From Promethearchaeota archaeon (GTDB lineage: Archaea; Asgardarchaeota; Lokiarchaeia; Sigyniarchaeales; Promethearchaeaceae): DNA of 5,261 nt. The notes beneath the pieces were generated by a model. It saw nothing but the letters and a program-made list of their open reading frames with translations, had not been told where the DNA came from and did no database searches. Below, in pieces: positions 1-5,261 of this stretch (positions are counted from its first letter, which is position 1; every line of letters starts with the position of its first letter). Location: contig JAFGBS010000018.1 of the NCBI GenBank assembly GCA_016933055.1, positions 1 to 5,261 of the forward strand. Direction: 5' to 3'. A program made the translations under genes and the position numbers.

Positions 1-1074
1 TCTATGGCTTTTGTGGGCAACACCCGCAATGAACTTGAATTTATGCTCAAACATACCAATCTTTTTGAAGAGATTCCAGAGCAGTTCTATGATTCAGCTT
101 TCATGGATCGCTTGCATACCTATTTACCTGGGTGGGAGGTGGAGATCATTCGCGGGGAGATGTTCTCTCATGGGTATGGCTTTGTGGTTGACTACCTTGC
201 CGAGATCATGCGCAAACTTCGCGATTATGATTATTCCAACCGGTATACCGACAATTTTTCGCTTCCAACAGAGATATCAACTCGGGATAGGGATGGGATC
301 AACAAAACTTTTTCCGGTTTGATGAAGATCCTCTATCCGGATGGGGTAGCTGAAAAAGAAGAGATTGAACCGATCCTTGTTTATGCCATTGAGGGACGAA
401 AGCGTATAAAAGATCAGCTTGTTCGCATAGACCCAACTTTTAATTTCGTCCGATTTGGATACTTAGATACCACTGAAAATTTTATTCCTGTTAAAACTGT
501 CGAAGAAGTGCGCTTCCCAAGGCATTATTATCAGCGACCGGATCCAGAGAATGAGATGGCATTGATTCCCGATGAAGAATTCAGTACGGAAGAACCAACA
601 AGCGAACTCGATATCATTCGAATGGGGGAGTCTCAATTCGTCGAGTTTAAAGCAGCTTTACGCTGGAACATTCATACCAACGCACCCGATAACAGGATCG
701 AACATTCCTTGCTAAAGACCGTGGTTGCATTCATGAATTCTGATGGGGGCACATTATACGTTGGTGTAGCTGATGATGGCGAGATTGTAGGGATTGAAGA
801 GGACCGCTTCCCAAATGATGATAAGTTTCTCCTTCATTTCGGGAATCTATTTAACGACAAGATCGGAAGACAGTTTACCAAATATATTGATTATGAGATA
901 GTCAAGATAAACGGAAAAAGTGTAATGAAAGCAAATTGCCATCGAAGTCCCCAACCGGTGTTCTTAAAGGACAAACAGCGCCAGGACGAGTTCTACGTCC
1001 GCCATGGTCCATCCTCGGTTGAACTTTCCATGAGTGAGTTCAATTCATACGCAAAAGACCGCTTTGGAGGTTGA
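1..1074 (+). CDS. brxL: BrxL-family (BREX Lon-like/MCM-type AAA+) protein, 5'-truncated by the window, fused to a C-terminal Schlafen/AlbA_2 domain
   Basis: The frame is open from position 1 (tct-atg-gct), so the ATG at 4 is probably internal. Nt ~1-530 encode BrxL-typical segments (FVGN, DSAFMDRLHTYLPGWE, GYGFVVDYLAEIMRKLR, RD...KTFSGLMKILYP, EGRKRIKDQL). An acidic linker follows (~535-600), then AlbA_2/Schlafen motifs: ESQFVEFK (628-651), KTVVAFMNSDGGTLYVGVADDGEIVGI and FYVRHGPSS. No Lon protease domain is present before the TGA at 1072-1074. Confidence 0.85.
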   Translation, partial: SMAFVGNTRNELEFMLKHTNLFEEIPEQFYDSAFMDRLHTYLPGWEVEIIRGEMFSHGYGFVVDYLAEIMRKLRDYDYSNRYTDNFSLPTEISTRDRDGINKTFSGLMKILYPDGVAEKEEIEPILVYAIEGRKRIKDQLVRIDPTFNFVRFGYLDTTENFIPVKTVEEVRFPRHYYQRPDPENEMALIPDEEFSTEEPTSELDIIRMGESQFVEFKAALRWNIHTNAPDNRIEHSLLKTVVAFMNSDGGTLYVGVADDGEIVGIEEDRFPNDDKFLLHFGNLFNDKIGRQFTKYIDYEIVKINGKSVMKANCHRSPQPVFLKDKQRQDEFYVRHGPSSVELSMSEFNSYAKDRFGG

Positions 1075-1165
1075 ATAACATTCAATAAAAAGCGACTATT
1101 TTCGATAGGCTTCACAAAAAAACTAAACTTTGGAAGATATTACTTGATCTAATATTTTACCGTAC

Positions 1166-1173
1166 AGGGAGGT
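1166..1173 (+). promoter_or_regulatory. Shine-Dalgarno site for the CTG start at 1180
   Basis: AGGGAGGT; the GGAGGT core (1168-1173) is 6 nt upstream of an in-frame CTG at 1180. Confidence 0.75.
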
Positions 1174-1179
1174 TCAACA

Positions 1180-1944
1180 CTGAGTACAGATAATAAAACA
1201 AAAATAGTTCTGTTTTCTGGCGGCATAGCATCATTTGAGGTTGGAAGACTAGTGTTAGAAAAATATGGCAAAGAAAATGTTAAGTTTTGGTTTTTTGATA
1301 CATTGATTGAAGATGAAAGTCTATATCGATTTTTAGATCAATGTGAAGATTTTCTTGGAATTACTATTGAAAGATTCAGCGATGGTAGAAATTTTTGGGA
1401 AGTTTTCAGAGATGAAAGATTTATTGGAAATTCACGAGTACCCTTATGTAATAGAGTATTAAAACGTGAATTATTAGAAAAAAAATTAAAACATGAATTT
1501 CCATTTAATAATGTAATACTTTTTCTTGGTTACGAATATACTGAGACAGATAGAATGGAAAAGGCGAAATTCAAATGGAACGAAAAAGGTTATGATGTTT
1601 CCTTTCCATTGGCTAGTGCACCACATCAGGAAAAAGTAGATCTTATTAATAAATTACAAAAATATGGTTTAGAAATACCAAGATTATATGATTTGGGATT
1701 CAAACATAACAACTGTGGTGGCGCTTGTGTCCGTGCTGGAATTAATCAATGGCAATTGTTGTTAGAACTTTTTCCAGAAAGGTATTTATGGCACGAGAGG
1801 CAAGAACAAAAAATAAGGAATTACCTTAACAAAGATGTTGCTATACTTCGGGACCGAACTGGCGGTGTAACAAAACCATTAACTTTGCGCAAATTACGCC
1901 TTAGAACTAATGGAAAAAATTTTCTTGAAAGGGGCAAAAAATGA
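1180..1944 (+). CDS. PP-loop (adenine nucleotide alpha-hydrolase / PAPS-reductase-like) enzyme, about 254 aa, probable Fe-S-binding cysteines
   Basis: Extending the 1252 ORF upstream in frame gives (M)STDNKTKIVLFSGGIASFEVGRLVLEKYG, which contains the PP-loop SGGxxS at 1216-1233. Further motifs: FFDTLIEDESLYRFL, DGRNFWEVF, PLCNRVLKRE (Cys at 1447), LFLGYEYTE..R, PRLYDLGFKHNNCGGAC (Cys at 1714 and 1726) and AILRDR. I recall this pattern from a phage/mobile-element branch of PAPS-reductase-like proteins. Confidence 0.8.
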   Translation: MSTDNKTKIVLFSGGIASFEVGRLVLEKYGKENVKFWFFDTLIEDESLYRFLDQCEDFLGITIERFSDGRNFWEVFRDERFIGNSRVPLCNRVLKRELLEKKLKHEFPFNNVILFLGYEYTETDRMEKAKFKWNEKGYDVSFPLASAPHQEKVDLINKLQKYGLEIPRLYDLGFKHNNCGGACVRAGINQWQLLLELFPERYLWHERQEQKIRNYLNKDVAILRDRTGGVTKPLTLRKLRLRTNGKNFLERGKK

Positions 1945-2576
1945 GCGAAGATAATTCTTCAAATGATAAGTGGTTGGATGTTTTATATGGTAGGGTAAAT
2001 GATCAATTTGTACTGTCGAGAACTAGCCAACAGAACACCCATCATTGGGTTATTTCCTTAGCTTTGGCTTTGATTACTGCCGTATTAACTTTAGGTGGTA
2101 ATGAAGAGCCTTATCCAAGTGAATTTAATTTTGTTGCTATTCTTGTATCATTGCCCTTAATGTTTCGATTTTTTGTAAGATCTTGTCTAGAAACATCCAT
2201 CCAAAATCGATGGATGGTTATTCGCAATGCCCTTGATGAATATAATTACATAAAATCAAATAATTTGAACCAAATTTCTGAATATAAAAAATATCTGGAT
2301 GAAGTAATTTCTCTTTATTATTTCAGTTGGAAATCTCCAACGAAAATTGAAAAAATCATCTGGGATAATATTCGTTTAGCTTACTTTTGGCCATTTGTTG
2401 TAATAGTTATTCTTTTAACCTGGGGTTATATTGCGCTTCCAAATACAAAAATGATCTGCATTACTTCAATAATAGTTTCTAGCTTTATGGTTTATGAAAT
2501 TGTTTCATTTTTCAATTATAAAGGATTCAAGTATGAAAAACCAGAAACAAAAAAGCCGCACATAGATTTTGTTTGA
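1941..2576 (+). CDS. Integral membrane protein with about 4 predicted TM helices, possibly remotely DUF2270-like
   Basis: Hydrophobic stretches at about aa 36-52 (WVISLALALITAVLTLG), 63-80 (FNFVAILVSLPLMFRFFV), 147-166 (AYFWPFVVIVILLTWGYIAL) and 172-192 (MICITSIIVSSFMVYEIVSFF). The start overlaps the upstream stop (ATGA at 1941-1944). Confidence 0.75.
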   Translation: MSEDNSSNDKWLDVLYGRVNDQFVLSRTSQQNTHHWVISLALALITAVLTLGGNEEPYPSEFNFVAILVSLPLMFRFFVRSCLETSIQNRWMVIRNALDEYNYIKSNNLNQISEYKKYLDEVISLYYFSWKSPTKIEKIIWDNIRLAYFWPFVVIVILLTWGYIALPNTKMICITSIIVSSFMVYEIVSFFNYKGFKYEKPETKKPHIDFV

Positions 2577-2975
2577 ATGAATACATTATCGATTGTATAG
2601 AACTTTAACACGAGTTAAAAATAAAAAGAATGAGAATAAATGTTATGAACAAATTACAATACAGGGTAAAAGTATATAAAGCTAAGCTAAAAAGATCAAA
2701 TATTGTTAAATTTTTTTTAAAGCAAGTACCGCTTTCCCCAAAATTTTTGTTGGTAAAAGGCCAAATTCATTTGATTTAGAAGAAGAATTGTGATTTAAAA
2801 GGATTGAACATTTGATTTGCGAAAACGAAAAGGTATATCCATTAAAACAATCATTTATACAAAAAGAATTTATTCCTGATCTCATTGCCCAAAAGGATTT
2901 CTATTGGAATTCAACTTTTATCAGCTTGGTTTCGATAAGCTGTCAAATCAAAAACAAGAATAATGGAGAAGAAAA

Positions 2976-3902
2976 ATGGAATATTGGTGGGTAAATCACA
3001 AACAGACATTTGATCAAGAACTAAATTTTGGTTATCTTTGGTCTCCAAAAACAAACAAAAATGGTTCAAGAAACCAGTTTTATGTTAATATGACAATTAT
3101 CCGTGAGGGGGATATAGTATTTTCCTATTCAGACGGAGTAATCAAGGCGATAGGGTTTATTACTGCAAGAGGAACCGAATCAACAAGACCAGATGAGTTT
3201 GGCGATATTGGAGAACAATGGAATAGAGAAGGGTGGATTGTAAGAGTAGATTGGCAATTACTTGAAAACCCATTTTCTCCTAAAGAATATATTGAAAGGA
3301 TTAGAAACCTTTTGCCTTCTAAATACTCCCCAATAAGAACTAATGGTGATGGAAATCAAGGATGTTATCTAGCTAGCATCAGCGATAATTTGGCTGAAGA
3401 ACTCTTATCTATTTCCGTGAACAAAGAATCAGTTCAAAATTTTGTGGAGGAGAAAAAAATCGAGAAAAAAGAAAATGATGAAATAGACAGGATTCGAACA
3501 TCAAACCTTCCAACAACTGAGAAGAAACAATTGATCACAGCTCGACGAGGACAAGGTGTCTTTCGAGAAAATTTGAAAAATGTAGAAAGCGAATGTAGAT
3601 TAACTCATGTTAATAATGAAAAACTCTTAATCGCAAGTCATATAAAACCATGGAGAGACTCAACCGATACCGAAAAGCTTGATGGAAACAATGGCCTATT
3701 GCTTTCTCCTCATATTGATAAATTATTTGATAGTGGTTACATCACTTTTACAAACGATGGCCATATACATAGAGCTTCGGAACAAGTTGATTTAGTTATG
3801 GAAAAATGGGGATTAGATCCCAAAATGAATATTGGTAAATTCACCTCAGATCAAGAAAGATATCTTGAGTACCACAGAAAGCACATTTTTACCGGCAATT
3901 AA
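2976..3902 (+). CDS. EVE/PUA-like reader + HNH endonuclease; putative modification-dependent (type IV) restriction enzyme, VcaM4I-like architecture
   Basis: N-terminal YWWVNHKQTF...GYLWSPKTNKNG...GDIVFSYSDGVIKAIG segment typical of EVE/PUA-HNH proteins. C-terminal HNH_2-type motifs ARRGQGVFR, CRLT, LIASHIKPW and NGLLLSPHIDKLFDSGYITF. GGAG at 2965-2968 lies 7 nt before the ATG. Confidence 0.85.
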   Translation: MEYWWVNHKQTFDQELNFGYLWSPKTNKNGSRNQFYVNMTIIREGDIVFSYSDGVIKAIGFITARGTESTRPDEFGDIGEQWNREGWIVRVDWQLLENPFSPKEYIERIRNLLPSKYSPIRTNGDGNQGCYLASISDNLAEELLSISVNKESVQNFVEEKKIEKKENDEIDRIRTSNLPTTEKKQLITARRGQGVFRENLKNVESECRLTHVNNEKLLIASHIKPWRDSTDTEKLDGNNGLLLSPHIDKLFDSGYITFTNDGHIHRASEQVDLVMEKWGLDPKMNIGKFTSDQERYLEYHRKHIFTGN

Positions 3903-3935
3903 TCTTTCGATGAGCTCATCTTTTATGTATAACAC

Positions 3936-4703
3936 ATGTACAAGGAGGAAATAATCCCAATTGCAATCGAAAATTCTAATAAATCTAACTCCCCATCAAT
4001 GGAAATTTTAGAAGAAGAAATATGTTTTGTAATTATGCCTTTTGCTGGTTGGTTTAATGATTACTATTCCTCAATTTATTGTCCTGCAATTGAAGCCGCA
4101 AGCATGACTCCCTTTCGAGCAGATAATCTGTACAGGCCTAGCACTATTGTTAATGATATTTGGTTATACACTCAAAAAGCGAAAATAATCCTTGCAGATT
4201 TATCCGGTAAAAATCCTAATGTTTTCTATGAACTCGGATTGGCTCACGGGCTTGCAAAACCTGCAATATTGATTACTAATTCTATGGAAGATGTCCCTTT
4301 TGATCTTCGAGCGTTGAGAGTTCTGTTGTATGATAAGAATGAACCTCGATGGGGTGATATTCTTCAGGATCAGATAACTAGAGTTATAAATGAAGTAAAA
4401 GAATCCCCACTTGAAGCTGTTTTACCTACATTCTTATCAGTTGATAGTGAATCAAACCAAAATACCATTTCTCCGAACGATAAAATTCTTTTGGAATTAC
4501 GAAATGATATAGATCTACTACGCTCTGAATTGGGCCGTAAGCGATCTATCAGATACAATTCATCTCAAATCACAGAATCTGAGGCGGAAATATTTATTGA
4601 TGATATGAAAAGTAATAATGTTCCAGAAAATATTATCGCAGAAAGATTATTCAATTTAGGCGTTCCATCCAATTGGATTATTAATAGATTAGGATCATCT
4701 TGA
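3936..4703 (+). CDS. Nucleoside 2-deoxyribosyltransferase (NDT)/N-glycosidase-like protein with a C-terminal coiled-coil and small helical tail
   Basis: Motifs CFVIMPF (4023), FRAD, IILADLSGKNPNVFYELGLAHG (Glu codon at 4230, in the position of the NDT-fold nucleophile), KPAILI and VPFDLRALR. A heptad-like segment DKILLELRNDIDLLRSEL follows. The exact start is uncertain (3936, ~3954 or 3999). Confidence 0.75.
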   Translation: MYKEEIIPIAIENSNKSNSPSMEILEEEICFVIMPFAGWFNDYYSSIYCPAIEAASMTPFRADNLYRPSTIVNDIWLYTQKAKIILADLSGKNPNVFYELGLAHGLAKPAILITNSMEDVPFDLRALRVLLYDKNEPRWGDILQDQITRVINEVKESPLEAVLPTFLSVDSESNQNTISPNDKILLELRNDIDLLRSELGRKRSIRYNSSQITESEAEIFIDDMKSNNVPENIIAERLFNLGVPSNWIINRLGSS

Positions 4704-4856
4704 TATTCATTGATAAAACTCAAAATATTGTGTGAAGGATTTTTATTATTAGCATATACTAAACGGAATTGCTTTTGTGAAACTATTGTGTAAATGAATC
4801 TTTTTGATCCTTACTTATTACAAACATTAGGAACATCAATACTAGAAGATTTATAA

Positions 4857-4889
4857 AGTTTGAAGCCCACCTTTGATAAGATGGGCTTC
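4857..4889. repeat. Palindromic 33-nt repeat, copy 1 (hairpin)
   Basis: agtttgaagcccacctttgataagatgggcttc; stem ttgaagccca (4860-4869) pairs with tgggcttcaa (4882-4891). 27/33 identical to copy 2. Confidence 0.85.
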
Positions 4890-4963
4890 AATAGGGCATT
4901 GTGTCAAAGCAAGCCAAAAATATTTTATCACAAATTTCCTTTTCTGATAAATTGAATTTTAAT

Positions 4964-4996
4964 AGTTTGAAGCCCGCCTTCGACAGGGCGGGCTTC
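4964..4996. repeat. Palindromic 33-nt repeat, copy 2 (hairpin)
   Basis: agtttgaagcccgccttcgacagggcgggcttc; stem gaagcccgcc (4969-4978) pairs with ggcgggcttc (4987-4996). Direct repeat of 4857-4889 at a 107-nt period. Confidence 0.85.
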
Positions 4997-5100
4997 CCAA
5001 AGCACCATTAACGAAACATATCCATTCTCTCCCGAATATTATATCATCAATTTAAGCATTCATTATTCTATTAATTACCATTCGAAATTTAATTTCCCCC

Positions 5101-5129
5101 TTGCAATTTATATTATATTTATATATAAT
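5101..5129 (+). promoter_or_regulatory. Sigma70-type promoter for the 5180 ORF
   Basis: TTGCAA (5101-5106), a 17-nt spacer, then TATAAT (5124-5129). The surrounding DNA is very AT-rich, which raises the chance-match rate. Confidence 0.6.
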
Positions 5130-5179
5130 ATCTTATAAATTAACAATTAAACACCGCCGCTCACACCACGGACAGCACC

Positions 5180-5261
5180 ATGCCCAAACGCACCAGAGGC
5201 GCGCAGCCAGGCAACACCAACGCCCTCAAACACGGCTTCTACTCACAGCAGTTCTCCCAGA
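5180..5261 (+). CDS. 5' end of a hypothetical protein with a terminase-small-subunit-like N-terminal motif (3'-truncated by the window; absent from the ORF track)
   Basis: ATG at 5180 reads MPKRTRGAQPGNTNALKHGFYSQQFSQ, open to the window end. GAxPGNxNAxKHGxY is a motif I recognise from N-termini of phage terminase small subunits and related small proteins. GC content rises sharply here (38/60 in 5161-5220). Confidence 0.65.
   Translation, partial: MPKRTRGAQPGNTNALKHGFYSQQFSQ

Follow-up and report, generated by a model that had tools for sequence, protein, structure and literature searches.

We analyzed a stretch of 5,261 nucleotides (hereafter, the window) that makes up the whole of contig C26 (JAFGBS010000018.1) in the 36-contig Promethearchaeota archaeon assembly GCA_016933055.1. 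Its first open reading frame (ORF), at positions 1–1074 of the forward strand, is the 3' part of the brxL gene of a type 1 bacteriophage exclusion (BREX) system, and the encoded protein ends in a Schlafen (AlbA_2) domain. This BrxL-Schlafen fusion is a real, rare and recurrent form of BrxL, already present in databases under the generic name of BrxL, and no description of it was found in the papers searched.

A Schlafen domain at the end of BrxL

Frame +1 begins open at base 1, runs to a stop codon at 1072–1074 and encodes 357 residues, with neither an upstream stop nor a start codon. The contig end cuts brxL at around codon 312 of 668, leaving the half with the Walker A and B motifs outside the window, and the ORF represents the 3' 46% of a gene for a protein of about 668 residues. 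The C-terminal half of the MCM-like AAA+ ATPase domain is encoded at positions 1–450 (residues 1–150, approximately codons 312–461 of 668). There, PF13337 (BrxL_ATPase) matches over profile positions 160–310 of 313 with an E-value of 2.2e-51, far over the Pfam gathering score, and the NCBIfam model TIGR02688 matches over 305–449 of 449, reaching its last position. The fragment scores 184 bits with the latter model, the truncation lowering the score below the cut-off of 329.3, while P0001, a full-length relative 91% identical to the fragment, scores 614. A conserved extension of the BrxL core follows at 451–576 (residues 151–192), ending where the C-terminal domain of canonical BrxL starts; the PADLOC BrxL model PDLC02508 covers residues 1–192 (profile 312–508 of 698, E = 1.5e-81).

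The core is connected to the tail by an acidic, probably disordered linker of some 20–30 residues at 538–627 (around residues 180–209), with 10 D/E versus 2 K/R in residues 177–209. Its columns are not conserved in the alignment of relatives, and the equivalent residues of P0001 (491–510) show a predicted local distance difference test (pLDDT) value below 50, being the sole low-confidence stretch between two well-modelled parts. The full-length AlphaFold2 model of P0001 (pLDDT 71.9, with the ATPase core at 215–320 below 50) was used only for domain limits and for this linker. A complete AlbA_2/Schlafen domain occupies positions 628–1071, and a spacer of 177 bp separates the stop codon from the next gene. 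PF04326 (SLFN_AlbA_2) matches residues 210–342 over profile positions 1–117 of 118 (E = 1.1e-21, 77.9 bits versus a gathering score of 25.3), and the modelled fold extends to the C-terminal helix. This is the sole Pfam match in the tail, the fold of which is also that of AlbA_2, and a phospholipase D (PLD)-like HxK/HRD domain is absent. No Lon_C match was found in the ORF at E ≤ 0.01 with Pfam, and the window contains no tRNA or Rfam matches. A preliminary description of this DNA had placed the C-terminal part of a BrxL AAA+ region, an acidic linker and a complete AlbA_2 domain in one frame, which the Pfam and PADLOC matches and the residue counts bear out.

The identity of the C-terminal domain, proposed in that description, was confirmed by both profile and fold. 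An AlphaFold2 model of residues 195–357 reached a pLDDT of 92.3, and its top Foldseek matches were the tRNase/DNA-binding domain of SAMD9, DIP2311 and Schlafens, with a probability of 1.0 for 34 chains of Schlafens, SAMD9 and other members of the AlbA_2 family. In the VIA fold search, Z scores of 13.8 for 3lmm, 12.4 for SAMD9 (7ksp) and 8.0–8.9 for SLFN5, SLFN11 and SLFN12 were obtained, the next unrelated chain being at 5.1. A profile built from 60 BrxL tails matches the catalytic C-lobes of SLFN11, SLFN12, SLFN5, SLFN13 and SLFN14 with E-values around 1e-5, and aligns the ES..EFK of the tails with their E-x4-E-x-K motif.

This motif is found at 628–651 as ESQFVEFK (E210, E215 and K217), with its codons at nucleotides 628, 643 and 649, exactly where the preliminary description had located them. 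Two further conserved acidic residues within positions 772–822, D258 (nucleotide 772) and D274 (nucleotide 820), may supply the third and fourth carboxylates of a Schlafen active site; HMMER places D258 opposite the GVDD of SLFN11, with a margin of one residue. The active site of AlbA_2 domains makes use of 3–4 acidic residues (PMC12680541). Residues E210, E215, K217, D258, D274 and R334 are invariant across the 60 BrxL tails; E-E-K, D274 and R334 are again invariant among 117 proteins from the wider clade (30–57% identity), where D258 is at least 90% conserved. The E-x4-E-x-K motif is common to SLFN11 and the bacterial Schlafen RorSlfn5 and its mutation ends tRNA cleavage; the Ex4(E/D)xK mutants of RorSlfn5 lose both Mn-dependent tRNA cleavage and defence (10.1101/2025.07.24.666596). 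By its residues, the active site of the BrxL tail looks intact. A two-copy homodimer prediction of the AlbA_2 tail (alignment A1) scored 0.01, giving no answer and speaking neither way.

With respect to the place of the tail in the protein, the six nearest BrxLs that lack a Schlafen tail, taken from the Chloroflexota and host-phylum samples described below, all carry Lon_C at approximately residues 510–670. The C-terminal domain of the Acinetobacter BrxL begins around residue 498, following a site sensitive to protease (PMC10164562). The Schlafen tail occupies the position of Lon_C in the nearest BrxLs, which fits the earlier claim that the Lon domain had been replaced by a Schlafen domain.

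Recurrence and genomic context of the fusion

Relatives were searched for among longer proteins clustered at 90% identity, with a threshold of E ≤ 1e-100, which should be out of reach for the ATPase part by itself. The search retrieved 161 clusters from many independent assemblies, with full-length proteins of around 668–675 residues. PF20442 (BrxL_N), PF13337 and PF04326 were found together in 120 out of 120 listed of these 161 clusters, at 53–91% identity over the whole fragment. The relatives keep invariant Walker A (GPKGTGKS) and Walker B (DE) motifs, and NCBI annotates them as "BREX system Lon protease-like protein BrxL". Since 161 independent clusters carry the fusion, it is not an assembly chimera, an artefact that the preliminary description had considered. 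A total of 6987 long BrxL-like clusters were scored, most of them matching only the ATPase part, and the Schlafen-tailed ones represent about 2% (161/6987).

The junction downstream of brxL was reproduced in another contig, L087, which shows 90.2% DNA identity to positions 1–2308 of the window and carries, in this order, higB, HTH/Peptidase_M78 (HTH, helix-turn-helix), pglZ, brxL (668 residues), PAPS_reduct and the next gene. Related loci show the orders brxC-pglX-higB-M78-pglZ-brxL (L003), brxB-brxC-pglX-pglZ-brxL (L005, a contig of 660 kb) and brxC-pglX-pglZ-brxL (L014), and the locus of the window is assigned to type 1 BREX on the gene order of these relatives. The BREX genes expected upstream were found in the syntenic L087 and in the three other loci, and none in the genome of the window itself; similarly, the upstream sequence and the full protein could be retrieved through L087 and P0001, but not the 5' half of this brxL from its own genome. 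A type 4 BREX was also considered, given the PAPS-reductase-like gene after brxL, and was rejected because the relatives have pglX and the type 1 order; furthermore, neither L003 nor L005 keeps the downstream gene, and type 4 BrxL lacks a tail. Between pglX and pglZ, the two BREX loci most closely related to that of the window contain two inserted genes, one for a HigB toxin (higB) and one for an HTH/Peptidase_M78 protein (L087:480-1981; L003:5983-7490). They may constitute a toxin-antitoxin pair embedded in the locus or a regulator pair of the ImmA/IrrE type.

The fusion was seen once in each of two samples of genomes. Among the matches in 401 Chloroflexota species, 46 had only the BrxL body, 22 only the AlbA_2 tail and a single one was fused, belonging to the centre genome itself, so that the Schlafen tail is present on 1 of 47 BrxL matches. 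Within 400 species of the host's phylum, BrxL_ATPase was detected in 20 genomes and the tail clade in 25, with the fused form only in G000, the genome of the window. In two genomes of this phylum, a BrxL with a Lon tail or without any tail is encoded on the same strand as a distinct protein with this AlbA_2 subtype, at a distance of 10–21 kb (G182 C34:24728-25216 and 35199-36143; G276 C5:153441-154379 and 175341-175802), and these pairs may represent the two modules of the fusion as unfused neighbours.

Strictly C-terminal AlbA_2 modules form a large clade that includes the tail, with 12062, 5710 and 1715 clusters (50% identity) at E ≤ 1e-3, 1e-10 and 1e-30, respectively. BrxL fusions account for 3 of the best 80 species-level loci of this clade. 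The N-terminal regions of many members lack a Pfam match, and sensor-type bodies include dCache, PAS, REC, cNMP-binding and CBS domains. The same AlbA_2 subtype was observed at the C-terminus of cNMP-binding, REC, dCache/PAS, GmrSD_N, HsdR, N6_Mtase and GHKL+GNAT bodies (L009:9587-10483, L052:9479-10462, L029:6578-8842 and L070:6959-10504).

A second lineage of BrxL with this tail is represented by P0129 (L090:3075-5084), the gene of which follows that of a divergent PglZ of 781 residues and has two DUF4268 genes downstream. The bodies of P0129 and P0001 are 30% identical and their tails 47–48%, while the body of P0001 is 42–46% identical to those of Lon-tailed BrxLs. These identities are most simply explained by two or more separate joinings of the tail to BrxL, or by its exchange between lineages. 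The number of joinings was judged from pairwise body identities instead of from a quick tree of 162 AlbA_2 tails, in which 82 of 159 branches were left open.

Proposed activity of the tail, alternatives and surroundings

BrxL assembles on dsDNA in an ATP-dependent manner and encircles it, with pairs of rings held tail to tail through the C-terminal domains (PMC10164562). The Lon-like tail of canonical BrxL is catalytically dead and structural (PMC10164562, PMC12839542). The Schlafen effectors studied to date, in turn, are switched on by assembly, as in the SLFN11 dimer and the Cash filament (PMC13462974) or the RorSlfn5 oligomers (10.1101/2025.07.24.666596), and SLFN11, SLFN12, SLFN13, SLFN14, SAMD9 and Cash cleave tRNA or rRNA (10.1101/2025.07.24.666596; PMC13462974; PMC12680541). 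By analogy, the N-terminal DNA-binding region and the AAA+ body of the fusion would form ATP-driven rings on DNA not methylated by BREX, as in other BrxLs, and ring assembly would bring the Schlafen tails together, turning on a metal-dependent nuclease. Its likeliest substrate would be tRNA or another RNA, judging from the Schlafen/AlbA_2 effectors tested so far, and the cleavage of RNA would provide BREX with a translation-arrest (abortive) arm.

The coincidence of ring pairing through the C-terminal domains of BrxL with the activation of Schlafens by assembly leads us to favour an assembly-gated tail nuclease. We give an even chance to such a nuclease acting, probably, on tRNA or other RNA and giving BREX a translation-arrest arm. 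The preliminary description had already inferred RNA or tRNA cleavage and an abortive arm, and this would fit the published work on prokaryotic Schlafens. A more detailed version is tentative, and on the whole somewhat doubtful: there would be a subset of BREX systems with a built-in Schlafen RNase, in which rings load on unmethylated invader DNA and pair tail to tail, the resulting Schlafen dimers cut tRNA and translation is arrested, this arrangement having arisen at least twice, with one copy in an Asgard archaeon.

Several observations weigh against an RNase of BREX defence. The clade bodies that are DNA-directed (HsdR, GmrSD_N and N6_Mtase) would fit a DNA target, and the other active-looking tail of BrxL, HKD/MIT_C, has been proposed to be a DNase (PMC12839542). 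Members of the clade linked to cNMP-binding or REC domains lie amid housekeeping genes (clpB, M20 peptidase, alcohol dehydrogenase and pilT-like), which indicates that the tail is not defence-specific. The AlbA_2 module is a general regulated output and not a defence-only one, as these bodies and neighbourhoods show, and Schlafen nucleases gated by ligands or phosphorylation outside defence islands are suggested. As for the Asp that corresponds to the catalytic D252 of SLFN11, the sequence alignment leaves a doubt of one position. Finally, a search of the window's own assembly, 91% complete, turned up neither another piece of BrxL nor PglZ, BrxA, BrxB, BrxC or pglX; the remainder of the locus is missing from it as unassembled sequence, and with the N-terminal half outside the window, a function in this organism would be supported through the 90%-identical L087.

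The first two of these points would fit a tail that acts on DNA, which it might cut or help to clamp, in an auxiliary restriction effector like HKD/MIT_C with neither RNA cleavage nor an abortive arm. The encircling of dsDNA by BrxL (PMC10164562) agrees with this, as does the crystallization with DNA of the AlbA_2 domain of SAMD9 (7ksp), the top Foldseek and second VIA match of the tail. However, RorSlfn5 was reported to be inactive on DNA (10.1101/2025.07.24.666596), the E-x4-E-x-K catalytic motif is that of an RNase, and the SLFN proteins, SAMD9 and Cash named above cut tRNA or rRNA; a DNA-acting tail is, in our opinion, unlikely but a serious competitor. It might also be that the tail is not catalytic at all, and is a structural or nucleic acid-binding module that takes over only the ring-dimerizing role of the Lon-like domain. 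The canonical tail is itself dead and structural, several mammalian Schlafens have no nuclease activity (PMC13462974), and the housekeeping neighbourhoods of the cNMP- and REC-linked members are regulator-like. Against this, E, E, K, two Asp and Arg are invariant over 60 tails and largely so over the 117 wider members, a pattern to be expected of an active site and not of a scaffold, which makes a purely structural tail quite improbable.

The remaining alternative concerns the DNA itself, which could be an assembly chimera or a bacterial contig misbinned into an archaeal metagenome-assembled genome (MAG). The contig is short and begins inside a gene, and the brxL part has a GC content of 0.429 versus 0.352 ± 0.026 for the genome, a value reached by 0.1% of its own 1.1-kb chunks. 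Its tetranucleotide correlation is 0.67, as low as in only 0.5% of those chunks, and the closest named relatives of brxL, among the matches listed, are from Anaerolineae (Anaerolineaceae). By contrast, bases 1100–5261 correlate with the MAG at r = 0.967 (0.972 ± 0.010 for its own 5.2-kb chunks), L087 repeats the same pattern with r = 0.93 at its non-BREX end, and the junction between brxL and PAPS_reduct is present at 90% identity in L087, which comes from another run. Together with the 161 clusters from independent assemblies, these data make an artefact hardly credible. The host is an Asgard (Promethearchaeota) MAG, whose RpoB (C28:125456-128818) falls in a 90% cluster named Promethearchaeota/Lokiarchaeota. 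Compositionally, the data fit a BREX locus that was horizontally acquired and is resident in this lineage, and the affiliation of its relatives suggests a transfer of BREX from bacterium to archaeon.

Downstream of brxL, all on the forward strand, the window contains at 1252–2576 a pair of genes that overlap by 4 nucleotides, the first for a PAPS_reduct/PP-loop protein of 230 residues (Pfam E = 1.6e-5; PADLOC SspD, E = 9e-11) and the second for a 211-residue protein without family match. This pair also follows brxL in L087, and not in L003 or L005, and for this reason it seems to be a module of the island in its own right, outside BREX. A protein of 308 residues is encoded at 2976–3902, with a C-terminal HNH_2 domain (E = 6.8e-12), a PADLOC match to HNH/type II restriction endonucleases and a weak one to "phosphorothioated DNA-binding restriction endonuclease". 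This probable modification-dependent (type IV-like) nuclease is encoded next to the DndC/SspD-like gene. The product of the gene at 3936–4703, of 255 residues, has no Pfam match and matches a PADLOC TIR effector at residues 64–134 (E = 4.4e-10). It is a candidate defence protein, and the contig looks like a defence island.

Significance and comparison with known systems

The Schlafen-tailed BrxL offers an experimental handle on how BREX stops the phage and on the role of BrxL after its loading on DNA. A recognizable nuclease tail with a mutable motif is an assayable output of BrxL activation; candidate read-outs are the cleavage of tRNA, RNA or DNA, toxicity and dependence on the multiplicity of infection, which would also test an abortive arm of BREX. 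If the tail does cut tRNA, this cleavage would be a direct read-out of when and where BrxL is licensed. The fusion represents a third kind of BrxL tail beside the Lon-like and HKD/MIT_C ones (some BrxLs being tail-less), would add a ring AAA+ ATPase to the sensors that drive Schlafen effectors, and shows that a BREX of this kind is present in an Asgard archaeon.

Full-text literature searches returned no description of a fusion between BrxL and a Schlafen/AlbA_2 domain. A 2026 survey of BREX (Rakesh & Krishnan) describes the tails of BrxL as inactive LonP, HKD-endoDNase (1030/2913 taxa) or absent (type 4), and reports Schlafens only as separate Schlafen-HisK-wHTH genes near BREX (PMC12839542), while Li et al. 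2025 described the MIT_C/PLD tail (PMC12065111). The Schlafen surveys list numerous fusions, along with a cluster associated with BREX and described as having "ATPase domains"; their main texts, in the parts consulted, do not name the BrxL-Schlafen fusion, and their supplementary tables may list it.

The canonical BrxL (Acinetobacter, PDB 8EMC; TIGR02653) shares with the fusion, as seen in its full-length relatives and their loci, BrxL_N and the MCM-like AAA+ domain, the position as last gene after pglZ, the boundary near residue 500 and a size around 670–700 residues, but ends in a dead Lon-like fold instead of an AlbA_2/Schlafen domain with an intact acidic motif. BrxL-HKD/MIT_C (PMC12065111, PMC12839542) is similar in that the dead Lon tail is swapped for a plausible nuclease domain within a type 1 BREX that keeps PglZ. 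It differs in having a PLD-like HxK/HRD site instead of the Schlafen carboxylate site, in being common (1030 of 2913 taxa, compared with about 2% of the long BrxL-like clusters for the Schlafen tail), and in its proposed target, which is DNA there and probably RNA here.

Prokaryotic Schlafens (pSlfn1-55, RorSlfn5, Cash, Avs9 and SLFN-pAgo) likewise join a single-lobe AlbA_2 domain carrying Ex4(E/D)xK to a module that senses or assembles. They are activated by oligomerization, with tRNA cleavage and abortive infection where tested. In BrxL-Schlafen, in contrast, the partner is the ring ATPase of BREX and the Schlafen domain is C-terminal. The BREX-adjacent Schlafen-HisK(GHKL)-wHTH genes (PMC12839542; "Cluster 2" of PMC13462974) are another case in which BREX has gained a Schlafen domain, proposed to serve as a backup RNase, but they are separate genes with an N-terminal Schlafen, whereas here it is C-terminal and in frame with a core protein of BREX. 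Human SLFN11 and SAMD9 resemble the fusion in fold, catalytic motif and the coupling of a nuclease to a DNA-sensing NTPase; SLFN11, unlike the BrxL tail, is a two-lobe pseudo-dimer with an SF1 helicase, and the sequence identity is only 15–23%; the resemblance is not taken to mean direct descent.

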